Shown piece by piece: positions 2-63,141 of a DNA stretch of 64,000 nucleotides (position 1 is its first letter; every line of letters starts with the position of its first letter). This DNA is from Candidatus Colwellbacteria bacterium (GTDB lineage: Bacteria; Patescibacteriota; Minisyncoccia; UBA6257; Colwellbacteraceae). The position numbers were made by a program, and so were the translations under genes. Below the pieces are notes generated by a model, which was not told the origin of the DNA, did no database searches, and saw only the letters and a program-made list of their open reading frames with translations. The stretch spans positions 7,240-71,239 of the forward strand of contig JACOXB010000006.1 of NCBI GenBank assembly GCA_016176505.1, in the 5' to 3' direction.

Positions 2-751
2 ATTCAAGATAAAATTGATATCAGTATTTATTTTAATATCGACACGCCCGAAGACGAAATTTTGGCTGTCAAACGTTCGATCGAAGGATTGGAAGAAGTA
101 AAATCAGTTGAATACGTTTCCCGAGATCAGGCCTTAGCTCTTTTCCAAGAGCGGCACAAAGACGACCAAACTATTACCACCGCCCTTGAAGAACTTGAAG
201 AAAATCCGCTTTCAGCTTCCCTGAATATTAAGGCTGAAAATCCTGACGATTACGCCGTGATCGCCGCTTACCTTAACAATAATGTGCCGACCGAAAGGGT
301 GGAGAATATTACCTACAATCAGAATCAGGTAGTGATTGATCGGTTGGCCTCGATTATCAGAGTCAGCCGCCAAGTCGGCATTCTTTCGGCTCTTTTCCTG
401 ACCGTAGTGGCGATTCTCGTCGCCTTTAACACCATTCTTCTTGGTATTTACTCGAATCGGGAAGAGATTTCGATTATGCGTTTAGTCGGCGCTTCAAATA
501 TGTATGTGCGCGGGCCATTTGTGGTGATGGGCATTATTTACGGCTTGATCACCGCCGTTTTAAGTATTCTGATCACGGCGCCGGTGGTTTATCTTTCCTC
601 TCCCTATGTCAGATTATTTATTCCGGAGATGAATTTAGCCGGGTACTTCGGCTCTCACATCGGCCTCCTCCTTTTGTACCAAATACTTTTCGGTGTCGGC
701 ATCGGCGTTATCTCAAGCTTCATCGCCATCCGAAGATACCTGAGCATCTAA
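2..751 (+). CDS. ftsX: Cell-division permease FtsX, C-terminal part (5' end lies outside window)
   Basis: Reading frame is open to position 2. Periplasmic domain followed by 3 TM helices typical of FtsX. Upstream in-frame residues (IQDKIDISIYF...) continue the protein. Confidence 0.75.
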   Translation: MQDKIDISIYFNIDTPEDEILAVKRSIEGLEEVKSVEYVSRDQALALFQERHKDDQTITTALEELEENPLSASLNIKAENPDDYAVIAAYLNNNVPTERVENITYNQNQVVIDRLASIIRVSRQVGILSALFLTVVAILVAFNTILLGIYSNREEISIMRLVGASNMYVRGPFVVMGIIYGLITAVLSILITAPVVYLSSPYVRLFIPEMNLAGYFGSHIGLLLLYQILFGVGIGVISSFIAIRRYLSI

Positions 752-772
752 ACAATTTTTCTAGCCGAAAAA

Positions 773-862
773 CTAAAGCGAGGGGAAGTTGTCCCGAGGG
801 TGAAGAAATTTTTGCCGCTGGAGCAAAAATATTCTGCTTCTGAGGGATAATTTCCCCGAGCC
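773..862. repeat. Short variant of dispersed repeat family R1 (left flank plus right half of core)
   Basis: ctaaagcgaggggaagttgtcccgagg ... gaagaaatttttgccgctggagcaaaaatattctgcttctgagggataatttccccgagcc is near-identical to 1590-1742 but lacks the central ~63-bp hairpin core. Confidence 0.6.
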
Positions 863-1066
863 TTTGTAACTTTTTTGGATCCCCCCCGTCTTCCCTATTG
901 GTGCGCCTTGAATTTCGGCCCACCACTCGTAGTTCTTTGAAGGGAGGTGATAGATCAGTTCTGGTCCCGAGCATTCGTTCGCTGGTTAACGAGTCTCTGG
1001 AACAGAATCACTGATCTAGTCCGGTCCTGTTGTAGGCAGTGTTTCGACTACCCGGAAGGGGGAAAG

Positions 1067-1486
1067 ATGAAACGCATCGCCGCCATCGTCGCCTTCGGCC
1101 TGGTCTTTGCCCTATCTCCTGGCATAGCCGAGGCCCATCACGCGAACTGGCCCTGCGATCTCCACTGGTGGGAGGGCGTCTGGCATCGGAAGCAGCTCAT
1201 CAAGTGCGAAGAGAACCGCATCGACCCGCCAGGCACGTTCCAGTACGTGCTCGGTATCGCTCGGTGTGAATCCGGCGAAGATCTCATGGACACCTACGCT
1301 GGTGATGGTTACGCTGGTCCTTTCCAGCAAGCCACCCGCTACTGGGACACGCGCTTCGATTATTACAAGAAGCCGTGGGACAAGCACTTAGTCGACAAGC
1401 CCGGGAACTTCCGGGCGAACGTCATCATAAGCTTCCGGATGGCCAAGTCCAAGGGTACCTGGCAAGCCGATTGGGCCTGCGCCTGA
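1067..1486 (+). CDS. Secreted transglycosylase-like (Rpf-like) protein
   Basis: ATG at 1067 with GGAAGGGGGAAAG RBS. Signal peptide MKRIAAIVAFGLVFALSPGIAEA. Motif IARCESGEDLMDTYAGDGYAGPFQQATRYW resembles the Rpf/transglycosylase-like domain (CESGG ... GGLQF ... W). GC is about 60% against ~45% in flanking DNA. Confidence 0.5.
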   Translation: MKRIAAIVAFGLVFALSPGIAEAHHANWPCDLHWWEGVWHRKQLIKCEENRIDPPGTFQYVLGIARCESGEDLMDTYAGDGYAGPFQQATRYWDTRFDYYKKPWDKHLVDKPGNFRANVIISFRMAKSKGTWQADWACA

Positions 1487-1497
1487 CAAAGAAGAGT

Positions 1498-1540
1498 CTG
1501 GTGGCCGAGCACTCAAGCTTGTTGAGTGCTCGGCCACTGG
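1498..1540 (+). terminator. Strong hairpin just after the Rpf-like gene (16-bp stem, 5-nt loop, no T-tract)
   Basis: gtggccgagcactcaa gcttg ttgagtgctcggccac is a perfect inverted repeat. Confidence 0.4.
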
Positions 1541-1589
1541 GCCTAGTTGAATCCGCCAATCGGCGGTTTTTTCGTCTTTAAAAATTTAA

Positions 1590-1742
1590 CTAAAGCGAGG
1601 GGAAGTTGTCCCGAGGAACATCCCGCAGGCCTAGCTCGGCTTGGTCTCCGACTCTAGTCGGAGCGAGCAGGCCGAGGGAGAAGAAATTTTTACCGCTGGA
1701 GCAAAAATATTCTGCTTCTGAGGGATAATTTCCCCGAGCCCC
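1590..1742. repeat. Full-length copy of dispersed repeat family R1 (MITE/REP-like, structured)
   Basis: Core aacatcccgcaggcctagctcggcttggtctccgactctagtcggagcgagcaggccgagggagaagaaatttttaccgctggagcaaaaatattctgcttctga recurs as the reverse complement at 59845-59990 and 62995-63141. It contains a nested hairpin ctcggc...ctccgactctagtcggag...gccgag. Confidence 0.7.
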
Positions 1743-1770
1743 TGATGTGGTAAAATAGTAACCAGCCTAG

Positions 1771-2997
1771 ATGCCTTTTAGATTCAGACCTCCTAAAATT
1801 AGACGCCCCAGAATCTTTAAGCGGAAAGGGGTCGGAAAGCCCGAGATTATTATTGGCATTCCCTCTTATAATGAAGCCGAGAATATCGGTATTTTAACCC
1901 AGATTCTTGACCAAGGGTTGATTAGGTATTTTCCTAATAAACGAGCGCTTATTATAAATGTTGACAATAACTCTTCTGATGGTACTAAAAAGGCCTTTCT
2001 CTCAACTAAAACTAAAACCCCCAAGCGTTACATTAGTACCGCGCCCGGAGTTAAAGGCAAGGGGCGGAATATTAAAAACCTTCTTGAATATTTTTTGAAT
2101 ACTGAATCAGCCGCGGCTCTGATGACGATTGACGCCGATGTTACGGCGGTTGATCCGAAGTGGGTTAAAAATCTTTTAACGCCAATTTTTAAAGGGTTCG
2201 ACCACTGCTTGCCGATTTACCGAAGGAGCGAAGATGATGGTTCGATTACCAACCACTTAGCTTATCCGATTGTTCGCGGTATTTTGGGCGTGGAAATCCG
2301 TCAGCCCATCAGCGGCCAGACCGCTCTTTCGCGTAAAGCGGCGGACCGGATTTACAACCGCCCTTGGCCGAACTGCGCTTACGGCTTTGGCATCGATGCC
2401 CTAATGACTTTGAGCAGCGTTTTTGGCGAGCTAAAGTTGTGTCAGGCGTATCTCGGAACAATTCACCACAAGCCGGTTAAGTTAGAGGACCCATTACTCT
2501 TTAACGAAGTGGCGGCTAGTCTCTTTAGTCTATTAAACGTTCAAAAACAGCTTTGGCAATGGTCAACCCCAATGAGGGTTCGGAGGCCGCCCGTTTTTTT
2601 CGAGGCTAATCACGGGAGCGAGGCGCCTAAAATGGGCATCGCCTACCGTGAATTAAAGGAAATTGTACTAGCCGAGTTTAGTAAGTATAGAAAAGAGATT
2701 GAGGCAATTGTCGGGAAGGATGTCTTTGGTTATCTTTCCCAGAATTTTGGAAAGGGCGGCGATTTAAACATAGATGCCGAACATTGGGCTGCGATTTTGA
2801 GTTGTTTTATTAAAAACTCAAGAACTCATCATCTAAAACGAGCTAAATTCTTAAGGCCGCTTTACCTGGGTCGTTTTCTCACTTTTTATAAAGATTCACT
2901 CGATAAATCGAGAGAAAGAATTGAAGAGGCGATTCTGGCTCAGGCCGCTCTCATCTTTAAGGAGAGAAAGAAATTTATTGATTTCCCTAAAGTTTAA
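1771..2997 (+). CDS. Family 2-like glycosyltransferase
   Basis: IIIGIPSYNEAENIG N-terminal GT-A signature and a DADV (DxD) motif. Confidence 0.55.
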   Translation: MPFRFRPPKIRRPRIFKRKGVGKPEIIIGIPSYNEAENIGILTQILDQGLIRYFPNKRALIINVDNNSSDGTKKAFLSTKTKTPKRYISTAPGVKGKGRNIKNLLEYFLNTESAAALMTIDADVTAVDPKWVKNLLTPIFKGFDHCLPIYRRSEDDGSITNHLAYPIVRGILGVEIRQPISGQTALSRKAADRIYNRPWPNCAYGFGIDALMTLSSVFGELKLCQAYLGTIHHKPVKLEDPLLFNEVAASLFSLLNVQKQLWQWSTPMRVRRPPVFFEANHGSEAPKMGIAYRELKEIVLAEFSKYRKEIEAIVGKDVFGYLSQNFGKGGDLNIDAEHWAAILSCFIKNSRTHHLKRAKFLRPLYLGRFLTFYKDSLDKSRERIEEAILAQAALIFKERKKFIDFPKV

Positions 2998-3489: not shown

Positions 3490-3738
3490 ATGCTTAATAA
3501 AAAAGCTTTTGGTACAGCTGTCGCTGTTTTTAACGCCATTTTTTGGCTGGTGGCCATGTTTTTCTCCCTTGTCACCGGCGTTGGCGAAATTACCCTAACC
3601 ACGATTGGCTCTTTCTTCCCGTTTTTCGAGTACTCGTGGCTGGGGATGCTTGTCATTGTGGTTGAGCACATTGCCCTTGGTTTTCTCGGCGGTTGGGCGT
3701 TTGCCTGGTTCTACAATCGCTTTAATAAATCAGCTTAG
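3490..3738 (+). CDS. Small integral membrane protein (hypothetical)
   Basis: Two or three hydrophobic helices, 82 aa. Confidence 0.4.
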   Translation: MLNKKAFGTAVAVFNAIFWLVAMFFSLVTGVGEITLTTIGSFFPFFEYSWLGMLVIVVEHIALGFLGGWAFAWFYNRFNKSA

Positions 3739-6291: not shown

Positions 6292-7470
6292 TTAATTTTT
6301 AATGATTGTTTCGACCTTTTCCCGGCGCCTGATTAATCTGGCGCGGTTCGCCTCTATTAAAACCTCAGCTGGACGCGGTCGCAGATTATAATTCGAGCTC
6401 ATGCTAAAGCCATAAGCCCCGGCATTTAAGATAGCGAGCGCGTCTCCGATTTTAGGGAGGGGGATAGGCCGGTCTTTAGCAAAGAAATCAGCTGATTCGC
6501 AGATATTTCCCACAATTGAAGCTTTAATTTTCTTGCCTCCTTGTCGGCTCAAATTAACTATTTCGTGGTAACTATCATACATGGCTGGCCGAATCAGGTG
6601 ATTAAACCCCGAGTTTACGCCGATAAAAACTTTTGAAGGGTTAATTTTGATGTCTGTGACTGTGACGAGCAGGGTGCCGGCCTCAGCGATTAAATAGCGG
6701 CCTGGTTCGAAAACAAAATTAAGCTTTCGGCCATAAACCGCCTCAAATTCTTTTAAGATCTTAACTACCGAGCGGCCAAGGCGATTTAAATCAAGAGGTT
6801 TTTCATTCGGTCGATAGGGGATGCCGATCCCGCCGCCAAAATCAATAAATTCTAAATCAGGAAAGCGTCGAGCGGTATGAAGCAGGGCCATCATTGCCTC
6901 AATGAATATTTTTTTATTTTCGTTAAGAATACCCGAGCCAATGTGCTGTTGGATTCCATTTACGGTGAGCTTGTATTTTTTAGCGAGAGCCAAAGCCTTA
7001 TTAATTTGGCGAACATCAATGCCAAATTTACTTTCTGGTCCGCCGGTAATGAAGTGATGGTGATTGCCGGCGCCAATACCTTGATTGACCCTGAAGCTGA
7101 TTGATGTGCCAGGTGCTAGCTCGCCCCACATTTTAATCTGGTTAAGCGAATCAAGGTTTACCCTGATTTTTCTCTTGTTAAGAGTTTCGAGCTCCTCCTT
7201 AGTGATATTACTACAGGTATAAATAATATCTTTTGGTTTAAATCCGGCCTTGAGTGAAATTAAAACTTCGCCAAGACTGACAGTTTCCGCTCCAGCCCCG
7301 AGCTTTCTTAAATACCTTAATATCTCGAGATTACTATTAGCCTTAACCGCATAATGAATTCTCAATCTGGGGTGATTAAGATTTTTAGCCAGTTTCTGAT
7401 AGCGGTCTTTAATAACCCTGGCTTCATAAACATAAAGCGGAGCACCGTATTTTTTAACCAGACTTTTCAC
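6292..7470 (-). CDS. lysA: PLP-dependent fold-III decarboxylase, probably diaminopimelate decarboxylase
   Basis: HYAVKANSN lysine-PLP motif, GGG loop, size typical of LysA. Confidence 0.75.
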   Translation of the reverse strand: MKSLVKKYGAPLYVYEARVIKDRYQKLAKNLNHPRLRIHYAVKANSNLEILRYLRKLGAGAETVSLGEVLISLKAGFKPKDIIYTCSNITKEELETLNKRKIRVNLDSLNQIKMWGELAPGTSISFRVNQGIGAGNHHHFITGGPESKFGIDVRQINKALALAKKYKLTVNGIQQHIGSGILNENKKIFIEAMMALLHTARRFPDLEFIDFGGGIGIPYRPNEKPLDLNRLGRSVVKILKEFEAVYGRKLNFVFEPGRYLIAEAGTLLVTVTDIKINPSKVFIGVNSGFNHLIRPAMYDSYHEIVNLSRQGGKKIKASIVGNICESADFFAKDRPIPLPKIGDALAILNAGAYGFSMSSNYNLRPRPAEVLIEANRARLIRRREKVETIIKN

Positions 7471-7504: not shown

Positions 7505-7531
7505 AAAAACCATCTTCGAAAGATGGGCGGG
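7505..7531 (-). terminator. Rho-independent terminator (minus strand) between the GC-rich element and the lysA start
   Basis: Minus-strand reading ccatctttcgaagatgg followed by ttttttt; a second GC hairpin lies immediately upstream. Confidence 0.5.
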
Positions 7532-8300
7532 GGGCGGGAGGTTCCTGAGAACCCCCCGCCCCCGCGGCGACCGCGGAGGGGTGCGGTCGGGGGCGACGGA
7601 AGGGCCCGGCGGACTCGTAACGAGCAGCTCGGGGAATGGGCACGGGTCAGGCCGCCCGCCAACAGGGCCCACACAGGCCCTCCGTCGTGGTGGATGGCGG
7701 CTGCGCGGCTACCATCCCACCGGGATGAGGAGAAGTCGGTCAGAGCCGACCGCGGTGTTGCTCGAGGGACGCCTCGCCCCTGAAAGGCGTCCACCGCGCT
7801 ATGCCTGCGTCTCGGCCCGTCCGGGATCCGGGCAGCGCTAGGCTTCGGGTCGGCCGAAGGACCGAGCATCTCCTCATCGCTTTAGCGGAGAAAGACTCCG
7901 CCAAGACGTATCATATTGCTCAAGGTGCGGGCGCTCCAACTTATGTCGGAGTGGATGGGGGAGTAAGACAGGACGAGGGACGCCCTGCTTCTTGGAGGAG
8001 AAGGGTTTGGGCATCCCTACCGGGGGAACCTCCCACCATCCAATTTAATTGTGGCCGAAAAGCAGTCTAGCTGTCAATTGGGGATAAGGAGCTCGAACTC
8101 ATCTCCTCAAGAACGCTCTCCGCTCGGATAAATAAACCCTCACTCAGCCAAAAAAGGGTGAAGCTGCTCACGGACTCAACCAATCTAAGGATACCCGACG
8201 TCCTTAGATTGGGATTTAAACATCGTTCGCCGCTCTTCTTCTTAGTGGCCTCGTTCGGTTATTTCCAACCTCGCTCCGAGATGTTCTTTACGGAGACAAG
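7532..8300 (-). ncRNA. GC-rich, hairpin-dense non-coding segment; candidate large structured RNA of unknown class (boundaries approximate)
   Basis: GC is about 65-70% against ~45% background. All six frames are open with Pro/Arg/Gly-rich pseudo-ORFs. Many perfect hairpins (ccaatctaaggacgtcgggtatccttagattgg; gacgcctttcaggggcgaggcgtc). Ends at a minus-strand terminator. I could not find RNase P or tmRNA consensus motifs. Confidence 0.3.
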
Positions 8301-15594: not shown

Positions 15595-15713
15595 AGTCGC
15601 CCAGTCGGCCGTCTCGGGAAAACTCCCGTTTTCCCGACCCCTTTCCCGTTCGAATCTTAGCCCGTCATCATAAAACAAAAATCCCTCGCCACAAGGCGGG
15701 GACTTTTGTTTTG

Positions 15714-15784
15714 CTGCCGGGCAGGGATTCGAACCCCGATACTCAGGTCCAAAACCTGATGTCCTACCATTAGACGACCCGGCA
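15714..15784 (-). tRNA. tRNA-Gln (anticodon TTG)
   Basis: Minus-strand cloverleaf. Acceptor TGCCGGG/CCCGGCA, anticodon stem TCAGG/CCTGA with loop TTTTGGA, T-arm GGGGTTCGAATCCCT. No CCA encoded. Confidence 0.8.
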
Positions 15785-23270: not shown

Positions 23271-23504
23271 CTCGATTCCTTTCTGAAGTGCGAAAGCTGC
23301 GAATAGCAGCCATTACCAGACCACCTGATAACCCAGCCAGATTAGCATAAATCTACGATAAGGTCAAGGTATCTAGCTCTTAAAAACGACCCCCTCTCTT
23401 TTCGTAAAACACATCATTTATATAACTTTTATTGACATAGATATAAAAAGGTGATATTTTAAGGGAGTATCGGCTTCCGCTGATATACCCCCAAGAGGGG
23501 GTCC

Positions 23505-23906
23505 TTGTCCCTTAGCAACTCGGAGAGGGACCGGTTGAAGGAGGCAATCGTGTTCGTCGCCTACGGCTTTATCATCAAGCCGGTCAAGGGTCCGTTCTAC
23601 AACCATCCGCCCCTTGGCACGGGCGATATCCTGAAGCTCCGGAAGCTCTTCCCCGACAACCCGATCTGGCAGGCCAGGACCAGTGGGGTCGGCAACGCCT
23701 ACCACCCGACGCCGGAGCAAGCACGTGCCTTCTACTACGCGTTGAAGGCCTACGCCGAGGCGCACGAGGTGAGCAGCGAGCAGTACCCAACTGGCAACAC
23801 CACCGGGCGGTTTCTCGTCTACAGCGATCTCAAGTCTGTCTTCGACGACCTCATCCCCTTCTTCGAGGACGAGCTCGACCTCCCGCGCACAAGGCGCACA
23901 GCCTAA
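23505..23906 (+). CDS. GC-rich hypothetical protein
   Basis: 133-aa ORF, about 60% GC; a hairpin plus T-tract follows at 23945-23970. Confidence 0.4.
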   Translation: MSLSNSERDRLKEAIVFVAYGFIIKPVKGPFYNHPPLGTGDILKLRKLFPDNPIWQARTSGVGNAYHPTPEQARAFYYALKAYAEAHEVSSEQYPTGNTTGRFLVYSDLKSVFDDLIPFFEDELDLPRTRRTA

Positions 23907-24011
23907 CGGCCCGCATGCGGCACAGTCTTATGGAAAGACTCGCCCCGCGTGCGGGTTTTTCCATTTAGAGAGGAAAGGGAACATATCTCTTGGTGTATAA
24001 TTTGAGTTAGA

Positions 24012-28933: not shown

Positions 28934-29164
28934 GTGCTGAAGTGGTACATTGGACTCGCGATCGCAGGTCAGGTGGCGCTGGTCCTCGTTGCCGTGGCTG
29001 GGTCTATCGCGACGGTCGTTGTCGGTGCTCACTGGCTTGGTGTGGTAGCGATCCTGCTTTTCGCCGGGTTCTTCTTCGTCATCGTCACGCAGGCCAAGAG
29101 GTGGTGTCGAGGAGAGCTCGCCAAGCTCGACCGTCGAGAAATGAGAGGGATGACCAATGGCTGA
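28934..29164 (+). CDS. GC-rich small two-TM protein (hypothetical)
   Basis: Putative GTG start; two hydrophobic helices; about 62% GC. Start and coding status are uncertain. Confidence 0.3.
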   Translation: MLKWYIGLAIAGQVALVLVAVAGSIATVVVGAHWLGVVAILLFAGFFFVIVTQAKRWCRGELAKLDRREMRGMTNG

Positions 29165-29420
29165 GACGCGTTCGAGCGAAGCCGTTCGAGCCATAGCCGA
29201 GAGGCATCACAGCCAACGGCGCTCGGGATCCTGGAACAGGCACAGCTCCGGGAAGTTCGACTTCTGTTCGAACGCTGAGTGCGTTCGGATGCGCGCGGCG
29301 ATCAAGGCCCTCGAAGAGCTCGAGGTCGAAGTCGAGCGCCTTAAGGCCGAGATACGCGTACTTCAGCAGGGTTCGAGCATGCCTATGCCCGACCCTAGCG
29401 AGAAAGTGGAAGCGCTGTAG
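29157..29420 (+). CDS. GC-rich small coiled-coil protein (hypothetical)
   Basis: 87 aa with C-terminal heptad repeats, followed by a GC-rich multi-hairpin at 29425-29468. Confidence 0.35.
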   Translation: MAETRSSEAVRAIAERHHSQRRSGSWNRHSSGKFDFCSNAECVRMRAAIKALEELEVEVERLKAEIRVLQQGSSMPMPDPSEKVEAL

Positions 29421-29474
29421 GGCGCTTCCCACGCGGCCCCCGGAAGGCCCGCCTTCTGTGGGGCCTTTCCGTTT

Positions 29475-29503
29475 CTGACTTCTAAAGATTTTAACTCTAT
29501 AAT
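29475..29503 (+). promoter_or_regulatory. Sigma-70-like promoter for gltX
   Basis: CTGACT, then 17 bp, then a perfect TATAAT, 7 bp before the ATG. Confidence 0.45.
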
Positions 29504-45825: not shown

Positions 45826-46137
45826 ATGGGCAGTGTCGTGGAAGATGCGATCATTCAGCAGTTCACGAGAGTCTTCGGCGAGGAGAGCGTCGTCTACTTG
45901 ATGGGCGGCGAATCCAAAGAAGTGGCGGTCAGGAAGATGCAGCTCGCTTCAGAGCTCGCTCGCGAACTCGCCCGACAGAATGTCAGTGAACCAGTGATCT
46001 CAACCTGGTTTACAAGAGAAAGTCCGAGGCTCGACGGCCAGAAGCCGCTCGAGTTTCTGGCGGAGAAGTCGGTTCAGGAGGCCCGGGCAGAGCTCTGGGA
46101 ACTGGTTAGGGCTGGGATCGACTACGATAAGATGTAG
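45826..46137 (+). CDS. DUF2384 (Xre/MbcA/ParS-type) antitoxin-like protein
   Basis: C-terminal WFTRESPRLDGQKPLEFL ... VQEARAELWELVRAGIDY resembles the DUF2384 toxin-binding domain. About 60% GC. Confidence 0.45.
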   Translation: MGSVVEDAIIQQFTRVFGEESVVYLMGGESKEVAVRKMQLASELARELARQNVSEPVISTWFTRESPRLDGQKPLEFLAEKSVQEARAELWELVRAGIDYDKM

Positions 46138-46145
46138 GAGGTGCG

Positions 46146-46463
46146 ATGAATAATTCTCCGGTGCCGGTAATTGAGGTTGAGGAGTTGAGGTACGGCAGGA
46201 TAAAGTACCAGGTAACGGCTTTGGTCTGGCCGAACCTCTGGCTGCGTTACGCGCGGACTTGGCACGGGGCGATTCGCCTCGTCGAAGAGTTCGGCAGGAG
46301 GCTGGAAGCTCGGGGTGTGCGCGTCATCGGCATCGGGGTGTATCTCGCGAGGCCTCCCGCCACCTGGACGCCGTCGACGCCGTTGCCGGGCGGCCGGGAA
46401 GCTCCGATCCGTGGCGGGCCTGGTCAACCATACCCTCCGGGCATGCTGGAGGAGAAGGAGTAG
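46146..46463 (+). pseudogene. Possible degraded partner toxin gene (pseudogene?) downstream of the antitoxin
   Basis: The first ~65 aa look protein-like, then Pro/Gly-rich low complexity. No intact RES-type domain recognised. Confidence 0.2.
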
Positions 46464-46645
46464 CTTCATCCTCTTGGGGTGAAGCTACTCCAAGAGGATC
46501 TACGGTGTTATATTATTTTCAATAATAATCGGCGTTTGCTGCCAGTCTCGGCCAATAAGATAACCAATACCAAAGCTTAAAAGACTAATTAAGAATACTA
46601 AGAGCGCTATTTGGACATAGGGCTTTTTTATTAAATTACGAATTC

Positions 46646-50234: not shown

Positions 50235-50305
50235 TGCGGGATCGTCTAATGGTAGGACGCCTGACTCTGGATCAGGTAATCTAGGTTCGAATCCTAGTCC
50301 CGCAG
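50235..50305 (+). tRNA. tRNA-Gln (anticodon CTG)
   Basis: Acceptor TGCGGGA/TCCCGCA, anticodon stem CCTGA/TCAGG with loop CTCTGGA, T-arm CTAGGTTCGAATCCTAG. Confidence 0.8.
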
Positions 50306-50310
50306 CTAAT

Positions 50311-57169: not shown

Positions 57170-57201
57170 AAAAGGACCCCGACTATAGTCGGGGTCCTTT
57201 T
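57170..57201 (-). terminator. Terminator hairpin at the 3' end of rnpB
   Basis: aaaaggaccccgactatagtcggggtcctttt followed by a T-tract on the minus strand. Confidence 0.55.
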
Positions 57202-57202
57202 G

Positions 57203-57592
57203 TGGAGGCAATCCGTAAGCCGGATTCTGTCGAGGACAGTAATTTATCTAGCTCTTCGATCGCTCTCAGAGTCAAGCGGCACTATCCGACCGAAGTCGGA
57301 CCACGGCCTTGCACTCGGGTAAGGTTTTAGCCGTTTCACTCCAGTCTTTTTATCCCTATAACTGGATTAGGCCGTCTACGTTGGGATCGGGCCTGTCCGA
57401 CCCTTGCAAGTCGGACCGTCACTGTTCGCACCTCTATCCTTACGGACGACGGGCATTACCCGCTACCTTTCTCCGACTATAGTCGGAGTGAGTGTCCGGA
57501 CTTTCCTCCCCATCCTCGAGCTCTAAGGTAAAGAACGATCTTTATCTGGGTTGGAGCTCGTTAGACAGAGCTACTGCCTGGATTACCTCCAG
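57203..57592 (-). ncRNA. rnpB: RNase P RNA (bacterial type A-like)
   Basis: Minus strand contains GGAGGAAAGTCCGGAC (CR-I / P4 5' strand) and GACAGAATCCGGCTTACGG (P4 3' strand / CR-V). P1 pairing is GGAGGTAATCC with GGATTGCCTCC. About 390 nt. Confidence 0.75.
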
Positions 57593-59844: not shown

Positions 59845-59990
59845 TTGTCTCGGCCAGTTGCTCTTCAGAAGCAGAATATTTTTACTCCAGCGGCAAAAAT
59901 TTCTTCTCCCTCGGCCAGCTCACTCCGACTAGAGTCGGAGACCAAGCCGAGCTAGGCCTGCGGGATGTTCCCTAGAGCAATCTGCCCGAG
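59845..59990 (-). repeat. Repeat family R1, copy 3 (reverse orientation)
   Basis: Reverse complement matches the 1627-1720 core with 3-4 substitutions. Termini attgctct ... gaagagcaact are inverted repeats of each other. Confidence 0.7.
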
Positions 59991-62994: not shown

Positions 62995-63141
62995 GTAACC
63001 CTCAGGTAATTGCTCTTCGGAAGCAGAATATTTTTACTCCAGCGGTAAAAATTTCTTCTCCCTCGGCCTGCTCGCTCCGACTAGAGTCGGAGACCAAGCC
63101 GAGCTAGGCCTGCGGGATGTTCCTTAGAGCAACTTACCTTC
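62995..63141 (-). repeat. Repeat family R1, copy 4 (reverse orientation)
   Basis: Near-identical to copy 3 and to the core of copy 1; between the galT start and the PBP stop. Confidence 0.7.

Follow-up and report, generated by a model that had tools for sequence, protein, structure and literature searches.

The Rpf-like gene near the left end of the stretch analysed here (64,000 nucleotides of contig JACOXB010000006.1, hereafter the window) is probably a foreign gene of phage or actinobacterial type, which encodes a secreted cell-wall enzyme related to resuscitation-promoting factors (Rpf) and has been kept by vertical inheritance, independently of the R1 repeats that lie on both of its sides. 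We assign the window to a Saccharibacterium (TM7; Candidate Phyla Radiation, CPR) because the proteins flanking the gene are 79–93% identical to those of contig L001, labelled 'uncultured Candidatus Saccharibacteria bacterium', and are encoded in the same order; L001 also carries the closest homologue of the Rpf-like protein, with 82% identity. According to the explanation that we propose, a single gene would have been inserted into the spacer between ftsX and a glycosyltransferase gene of a Saccharibacterium. It would have reached Saccharibacteria from the actinobacterial gene pool, probably by an actinophage or prophage, before two species diverged, and would then have been inherited vertically under purifying selection and deleted in a third lineage. 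The secreted enzyme would cleave the glycan backbone of peptidoglycan.

The open reading frame (ORF) encodes 139 amino acids, and its translation contains ARCESG, GYAGPFQQ and a C-terminal W..W.C, in agreement with the sequence-only reading, which had described a secreted-type protein with CESG, GYAGPFQ and W motifs. By inspection, the N-terminus consists of a basic n-region (MKR), a 13-residue hydrophobic core and an A-x-A site (AEA followed by HH). A similar pattern recurs at the N-termini across the family alignment, and helix 2–15 has a lower predicted local distance difference test (pLDDT) score in the AlphaFold2 (AF2) model. The protein therefore reads as one exported via a predicted Sec signal peptide, and the mature form would have about 116 amino acids including four Cys. 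An upstream GTG start at 947, giving a 179-aa reading, was rejected because the leader contains non-triplet indels relative to L001, whereas the Shine-Dalgarno sequence and the ATG at 1067 are conserved. Between the two R1 copies, homology supports this ORF only, and other ORFs overlap the same span in other frames.

A word-indexed search of 5.8 billion proteins gave only five relatives, and the assembly index had no entry for the exact protein. An exhaustive profile search recovered 503 cluster representatives at E ≤ 1e-3, of which 166 reached E ≤ 1e-10, mostly full-length at about 140 aa. The family alignment and profile were made from 118 of these representatives, to which the conservation and Pfam counts refer. 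E68 and Q87 were invariant, and C30, C47, S69, G84, W93, R96, G130, W132 and W136 were at least 90% conserved. A search of PDB with the single sequence returned noise, as did a profile of 6 sequences, and Rpf was reached only by the 118-sequence profile, which matched RpfC over the whole Rpf domain (4ow1: E = 2.1e-5), RpfB (4kl7: 4e-4) and c-type lysozymes (GH22: ~3e-5). The hhalign comparison with the RpfC domain gave a probability of 94.6% and E = 6.5e-8 over 69 of 71 residues, in which CESG and the C-terminal W..C were aligned, the catalytic E68 in ARCESG fell on the CESG of RpfC, and C67 and C138 fell on both of its Cys residues; the corresponding Cys pair forms a disulfide in Rpf. Weak matches to PF06737 at E < 0.01 were found for 29 of the family members (best 1.8e-6), and 22 matched SLT PF01464, again weakly. 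Precomputed Pfam annotation was empty for nearly all relatives. The AF2 model obtained with the family alignment (pLDDT 92.5) has five helices and a beta-hairpin, and nearly all of its Foldseek matches were lysozyme-like (phiKZ gp144, RpfB/E, MltE/F, Slt70, SLT/GEWL phage proteins and actinophage tape-measure domains). Judged by these comparisons, the protein falls within the lysozyme-like superfamily, in an uncurated family with a core nearest to that of Rpf, and by Pfam's own criterion the protein stands outside PF06737; the roughly 500 clusters at 50% identity would form a Rpf-related family without Pfam membership.

Like the Rpf domain proteins of PF06737 (M. tuberculosis RpfB, RpfC and RpfE, and M. 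luteus Rpf), the window protein is predicted to be secreted and to have a small lysozyme-like domain. The two align over the full domain in CESG, the G-x-x-Q strand, the W that follows and the terminal W..C, share one Cys beside the Glu and one at the C-terminus, and belong to families that are mainly actinobacterial. Unlike them, the window protein has an additional N-terminal helix of ~35 residues with a second conserved Cys pair (C30, C47), which is family-specific and precedes the Rpf-homologous C-terminal 75 residues, and, between the beta-hairpin and the final helix, an insert longer than theirs. Accessory domains of the LysM, DUF348 or G5 type are lacking, and members of its family are found in a CPR bacterium as well as in early regions of phages. 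Regarding family-1 lytic transglycosylases (SLT PF01464: Slt70, MltE, MltF; phiKZ gp144), which together with Rpf are the best structural neighbours, although with Foldseek E-values that are not significant, the E-S and G-x-x-Q motifs (here G-x-F-Q) and the predicted fold class are common to both. The window protein is, however, much smaller, gave no PF01464 match at E ≤ 1 and has no conserved AYNxG/Y motif region after the Q motif, where SLT enzymes have it. No invariant Asp that could complete the Glu+Asp pair of GH22 was found among the 118 sequences. Since E68 is invariant and there is no second invariant acidic residue, cleavage between MurNAc and GlcNAc would be expected, as by Rpf and lytic transglycosylases, and the protein most probably works like Rpf, by a predicted single-Glu cleavage of glycan strands.

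The foreign origin of the gene is suggested first by its composition. The sequence-only reading had put it at about 60% GC, and the measured values were 0.598 for GC and 0.764 for GC at third codon positions (GC3), compared to means of 0.448 ± 0.037 and 0.446 ± 0.053, respectively, for the 36 other window ORFs of at least 200 aa that served as reference, so that GC3 of the Rpf-like gene lies ~6 standard deviations above the mean. GC3 of both Saccharibacteria copies was 0.74–0.77, which by our own estimate is roughly what partial amelioration of a donor near 0.9 would leave at such divergence. Among 21 GTDB species matches, one was from Saccharibacteria, and the other 20 were labelled Actinomycetota, Actinomycetes or Solirubrobacterales, save one labelled plainly 'bacterium', which agrees with the earlier statement that such domains are characteristic of Actinobacteria. 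The actinobacterial homologues had GC3 of 0.78–0.97 within loci of 0.68–0.75 GC, i.e. native composition, and the amino-acid composition of the family is of high-GC type (median FIKNY/GARP 0.39); at 0.81, the window protein ranks in the top four of 152. In neighbour-joining (NJ) trees the Saccharibacteria pair was placed in a subclade apart from labelled chromosomal actinobacterial sequences (bootstrap 90/100 and 179/200), together with L026, L003, L025, P0006, P0008, P0010 and P0156 (179/200). The suggestion that the protein might nest within Actinobacteria thus holds in so far as the family is mainly actinobacterial, but not for the nearest relatives, which are phage-borne rather than chromosomal. 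The marks of horizontal acquisition are all seen here, namely atypical composition, patchy presence among close relatives and nesting outside the own lineage, and the gene was most probably derived from the actinobacterial gene pool via an actinophage or prophage.

The genomic contexts of the relatives point in the same direction. The 54% identical homologue on L003 (P0002), which likewise gave no PHROG match, lies on a contig of 71% GC and adjoins a RusA resolvase (phrog_140, 1.7e-14), and the 50% identical one on L025 (P0007) adjoins RusA, two methylases, an integrase and VanY. The contig represented by L026, L027 and L028 is a phage replication module (SNF2 helicase, PDDEXK, AAA_24, DUF3987, WhiB, PAPS reductase, DNA polymerase A and Amidase_2), whose homologue shares 60% identity with the window protein across 124 aa, at a native GC3 of 0.61. 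By gene content, the three closest members with readable context thus all sit in phage-like DNA. In addition, the contexts of L069 and L070 consist of tightly packed, co-directional small ORFs without Pfam matches. The L026 homologue (7806–8204; also in L027 and L028) had been called as 67 aa lacking the catalytic Glu, whereas the real ORF is full-length with CESG and, in a different frame, overlaps the called WhiB gene at its 3′ end.

Actinophage tape-measure proteins carry Rpf-like or transglycosylase motifs, for example that of mycobacteriophage TM4. Such domains resemble the family in being phage-borne, putatively muralytic modules of the same predicted fold directed at actinobacterial walls, and Gordonia and Mycobacterium phage domains were among the structural matches. 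On the other hand, the phage homologues found here are free-standing, have a signal peptide and lie in replication or early regions next to RusA or WhiB, and are not embedded in a virion protein. The window gene is also comparable to phage morons or lysogenic-conversion genes: it stands alone, has a leader and a terminator of its own and an alien composition, and its closest relatives are in phage genomes. Unlike morons, it stands outside any recognisable prophage and has no adjoining phage gene, judged from the ORF list and Pfam. Transfer by a phage of the putative actinobacterial host is plausible because a host prophage binds TM7x and infects it to a limited extent (PMC13578794).

As for its history in Saccharibacteria, the gene is found at the same place in the window and L001, in the order ftsE-ftsX-[gene]-GT2-DUF7282-FAD oxidase, where GT2 is a family-2 glycosyltransferase. 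FtsX is 93% identical between the two. Between the Rpf-like genes dS was 1.38 and dN/dS 0.087, compared to dS of 1.55–2.28 and dN/dS of 0.04–0.09 for the neighbours. Since the gene is as diverged as its flanks, it was already present in the common ancestor of the two species, and from these rates it appears to have been kept under purifying selection since then, with vertical inheritance in both. The L001 orthologue is syntenic, but its GC3 of 0.74 is not native, so that the refuting case named in the sequence-only reading, a vertically conserved orthologue with native GC, does not apply. GT2 is syntenic also in L038, and its start is visible in L029; in both of these relatives, where the cassette is absent, ftsX is followed directly by GT2 with no ORF between. 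Identities of GT2 and FtsX give the host relationships (window,(L001,(L029/L038))), with GT2 91.8% identical between L001 and L038 and 79.5% between the window and L001. L029 retains the 3′ half of the gene leader up to the Shine-Dalgarno sequence and ATG, fused to the sequence that normally stands just upstream of GT2, and L038 retains AACGAGTCTCTGGAA only. We considered L029 and L038 as ancestral empty sites and rejected this, because the gene-bearing L001 groups with them rather than with the window, and because remnants of the leader persist. Read from these remnants, the two states are successive deletions by which the gene was lost in a third lineage. The gene is absent also in relatives more distant than these two.

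The same spacer holds different GC-rich ORFs in other relatives, whose FtsX is ~74% identical (L048/L041 5690–6455 and L037 3168–4230; 0.52–0.54 vs 0.45 GC). These ORFs encode 123–143 aa without Pfam match, and the ftsX-GT2 spacer looks like a place where foreign genes have landed repeatedly.

Several results weigh against the explanation of a foreign Rpf-related wall enzyme. Regarding identity, the window protein scored 17.8 bits against PF06737 (E = 0.0053, residues 64–95), below the gathering threshold of 27 bits, and by itself had no NCBIfam, PHROG or PDB-sequence match, so that the Rpf or transglycosylase-like nature proposed from the sequence alone stands as remote homology through the family profile and not as membership in the Pfam family. 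Foldseek matches were weak (E ≥ 0.25 for PDB, ≥ 0.005 for BFVD), and placement with Rpf rather than SLT is soft, considering the 22 SLT and 29 PF06737 matches among the 118. Regarding origin, the peptide patterns for the GTDB scan came from six sequences, which biases the count of 20 out of 21 to near relatives, and the trees are NJ only. A tblastn search of GenBank phages found no homologue, and IMG/VR gave no confirmed relative. The phage link appears real but thinly sampled, with three metagenomic contexts and two suggestive ones. WhiB points to Actinobacteria, and it is the sole pointer to them as hosts of the homologue-bearing phages. The DNA polymerase of L026 is clearly phage-type at ~30% identity to GenBank phages and yields no host inference. 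Finally, loss in the sister lineage means that the gene is dispensable.

Regarding the role of the enzyme, we tentatively suggest that it may cut the exposed wall of an actinobacterial host locally at the contact between epibiont and host, and we hold this somewhat short of even confidence. The main alternative, unlikely though worth weighing, is that the enzyme is self-directed and remodels the cell's own peptidoglycan during division or during insertion of a pilus or secretion system, possibly under the adjacent FtsEX. The gene follows ftsX directly, FtsX has its extracellular domain, and FtsEX governs wall hydrolases in other bacteria (RipC in mycobacteria; PcsB, CwlO and EnvC in others); these points would fit self-directed action. 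Moreover, glycan-strand chemistry is universal, so that substrate specificity would be no bar to self-action, and purifying selection at dN/dS 0.087 would fit as well. However, the spacer that holds the gene is filled with unrelated GC-rich ORFs in L048/L041 and L037 and with nothing in L029 and L038, and with such variable content the adjacency to ftsX looks like a landing-site effect and not an operon partnership. Besides, the gene has its own leader and terminator, can be dispensed with in the sister lineage, and encodes a protein without the FtsX-binding coiled coil that EnvC, PcsB and RipC have, the model being made of five short helices. It is improbable, to a clearly greater degree, that the protein is a captured effector for host manipulation, a diffusible 13-kDa Rpf-like enzyme, which would generate muropeptide signals or wall lesions and thereby wake dormant actinobacterial hosts or keep them growing, so that they could be exploited; phage relatives bearing a signal peptide in early regions would then do the same for phage infection.

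We regard it as very improbable that the gene is native to Saccharibacteria, with its high GC3 selected via mRNA structure or expression and the family either passed from CPR bacteria to actinobacteria and phages or shared with them by ancient descent. Such a history would account for the GC3 of both copies at synonymous sites near saturation (dS 1.38), and the leader and 3′ hairpins are conserved as it would have them. On the other hand, a single Saccharibacteria species stands among the 21 GTDB matches and the remainder are actinobacterial with native composition, most of the ~500 cluster representatives have an amino-acid composition of high-GC type, and close relatives of the host are without the gene. 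Furthermore, amelioration from a donor GC3 of ~0.9 over ~0.7–1 substitutions per site gives, again by our own estimate, values near those observed.

The sequence-only reading had the gene acquired or mobilised as a unit bracketed by R1 repeats at 773–862 and 1590–1742. One copy does lie on each side, with boundaries now at 771–862 and 1588–1740, but R1 occurs at further sites too; likewise the foreign origin stands, by composition and relatives, but the part given to R1 does not. That the cassette was acquired or moved through the two repeats, as in a composite element or between att sites, is contradicted by the comparison with relatives and can hardly be entertained. The two flanking copies are co-oriented and 97–100% identical, where chance would give 0 matches, and they are far more alike than the other window copies, hence recent copies of one another. 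However, the L001 cassette stands at the same site with neither copy on either side. The cassette is as diverged as its flanks and would thus be older than the near-identical pair, and the flanking copies, on this comparison, arose by a recent duplication, long after the cassette. R1 cores lie in other intergenic gaps, and 3′ of ftsX in distant relatives that have no gene there. The ORF list shows no transposase or integrase in the unit, whose neighbours are ftsX and the glycosyltransferase, and the deletions in L029 and L038 end elsewhere than R1.

An exact-motif search for the R1 ends in the relatives' loci found nothing, and blastn and nhmmer then found divergent cores of ~65 nt in six other Saccharibacteria loci and at two further window sites. 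In four of the six loci (L039, L041, L048 and L042) the core is immediately 3′ of ftsX on the opposite strand. Part of the 55-nt module of copy 2, CTCCGACTCTAGTCGGAG(C/T)GAGC, is found ahead of the cores at 59.9 kb and 63.0 kb as well, so that R1 is modular and not a repeat with a private insertion. Copy 1 folds with −43.7 kcal/mol (z = −6.4) on the plus strand and −28.5 kcal/mol (z = −3.2) on the minus strand, the difference coming from G-U pairs. The core, GAAGAAATTTTTGCCGCTGGAGCAAAAATATTCTGCTTC, and its flanks are conserved where FtsX is only 55–75% identical, its GCTGGA loop is invariant and its location is always intergenic. In L048 the stem has changed from TTTTTGC/GCAAAAA to TTTTTCT/AGAAAAA, which is compensatory. 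From this distribution R1 is a dispersed, conserved intergenic hairpin element outside the acquired unit, and the conservation and the compensatory change suggest that it has a function as RNA or DNA and is more than a selfish repeat. It resembles REP/BIME, ERIC, BOX and Correia repeats in being short (~65–150 nt), intergenic, hairpin-forming, dispersed and modular, and its window copies are co-oriented with neighbouring genes. Its conservation across Saccharibacteria as divergent as these, and the change in L048, set it apart from REP/BIME-type repeats.

Least probable of all is that a phage insertion left the gene as a decaying remnant without function, a reading to which the single gene, its phage-type relatives and its loss by deletion in L029 and L038 might point, but dN/dS is 0.087 over 139 codons at saturating dS, and the family-invariant residues, signal peptide, Shine-Dalgarno sequence and terminator are all intact in two species.

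The 5′ leader is conserved block by block with L001, and both of its hairpins are predicted in the window (z = −2.0) and in L001 (z = −4.2). The ydaO/c-di-AMP riboswitch controls some actinobacterial rpf genes. A search of 700–1800 against Rfam at E ≤ 10 returned only meaningless miRNA-type hairpins and no ydaO/c-di-AMP riboswitch. The leader may be a cis-regulatory RNA, for which two full sequences are available for comparison. A sigma-70 scan gave no plus-strand promoter for the Rpf-like gene. Downstream of the stop codon, the perfect 16-bp hairpin noted earlier is present, and the terminator proper is the second hairpin that follows. The region 1487–1580 folds with z = −7.4. L001 has an 18-bp hairpin of another sequence at the position of the 16-bp one, i.e. 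the structure is kept and the sequence changed. Before GT2, an extended -10-like element (TGGTAAAAT; TGGGAAAAT in L001) is conserved in four genomes 14 nt before the start codon, a position that suggests an almost leaderless mRNA for GT2. In L029 the remnant Shine-Dalgarno sequence and ATG of the lost gene are joined directly to this element. Coordinates are collected in Table 1.

Table 1. Features of the Rpf-like locus and positions of the R1 elements (window coordinates unless a contig is named)
Feature	Position	Strand	Remarks
ftsX, 3′ part	62–751	+	window begins inside gene; Pfam FtsX_ECD 1e-13, FtsX 1.8e-11; left flank
R1 copy 1	771–862	+	92-nt imperfect hairpin repeat, core 792–854; direct repeat with 1588–1740
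Conserved 5′ leader	863–1066	+	204 nt; together with start region (863–1075) corresponds to L001 2838–3085
Leader long hairpin	951–1018	+	predicted fold
Leader second hairpin	1039–1075	+	GUGUUUCG paired with start region UGAAACGC
Shine-Dalgarno sequence	1054–1062	+	GGAAGGGGG; between pairing arms of second hairpin
Rpf-like gene	1067–1486	+	139 aa, stop codon included; catalytic Glu68 within CESG
Predicted Sec signal peptide	1067–1135	+	residues 1–23, MKRIAAIVAFGLVFALSPGIAEA; cleavage after AEA, by inspection
Perfect 16-bp stem, 5-nt loop hairpin	1501–1516/1522–1537	+	15 nt past stop codon; no T-run of its own
Canonical intrinsic-terminator-like hairpin	1553–1572	+	CCGCCAATCGGCGG then T6; stem-loop 1553–1566
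R1 copy 2	1588–1740	+	copy-1 ends plus 55-nt module (1617–1671); core 1668–1732
-10-like element before GT2	1748–1756		L001 ~3603–3612; L029 ~1218–1226; L038 ~1586–1594
GT2	1771–2997	+	Pfam MGS_GT 2.7e-10, Glycos_transf_2 4.9e-9; right flank
R1 core	59855–59918	-	nhmmer 6e-21; intergenic gap between two minus-strand genes
R1 core	63006–63070	-	nhmmer 1e-20; intergenic gap between two minus-strand genes
R1 core in relatives	L039 910–974; L041/L048 5703–5765; L042 1790–1825; L050/L051 8233–8298		

Elsewhere in the window, a ~550-nt island at 7510–8060 (minus strand) reaches 0.67–0.71 GC in a genome of 0.46 GC and contains no credible ORF. It folds beyond shuffled sequences (z = −8.1 on the minus strand vs −4.0 on the plus strand) and ends in a hairpin and T7 at ~7500, just upstream of a lysA-like gene (6292–7470, minus strand). 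No Rfam family matched it at E ≤ 1, and it is a candidate for a large structured non-coding RNA. Three further GC-rich islands, at 23501–24000, 29001–29500 and 46001–46500 (0.60–0.61 in 500-nt windows), contain small unannotated ORFs only, one of which (133 aa, 23505–23906) has no Pfam match; these islands could be further foreign genes or structured RNAs. RNase P class A at 57200–57590 (minus strand) scored 104.6 bits, barely above the Rfam threshold of 100 bits, and the only tRNAs in the 64 kb are two tRNA-Gln with anticodons UUG and CUG, at 15713–15784 (minus strand) and 50235–50306 (plus strand), respectively.

Cultivated Saccharibacteria live attached to Actinobacteria, but little is understood of the ways in which they breach the host wall or manipulate it, and few cases of gene flow from host to epibiont are documented. 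Jaffe et al. (2021) noted that evidence for lateral transfer was lacking in those Saccharibacteria-host pairs that had been profiled experimentally (PMC8406219). Our literature search found no paper that ties Saccharibacteria to Rpf, and three co-mentions of the two proved irrelevant; the enzyme class is known, and what is new is that this uncurated family occurs in an epibiont of the CPR, by way of a phage-type lineage. The putative muralytic gene, which is of actinobacterial and phage type and fixed in two species of a Saccharibacteria lineage from environmental metagenomes, is a candidate effector and a genomic pointer to an actinobacterial host for that uncultured lineage, and the case is consistent with host phages delivering DNA to the epibiont. 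If the enzyme should indeed wake dormant hosts or sustain their growth, it would be the first parasite-encoded resuscitation factor, and the gene would serve as a sequence marker that links environmental Saccharibacteria to actinobacterial hosts.

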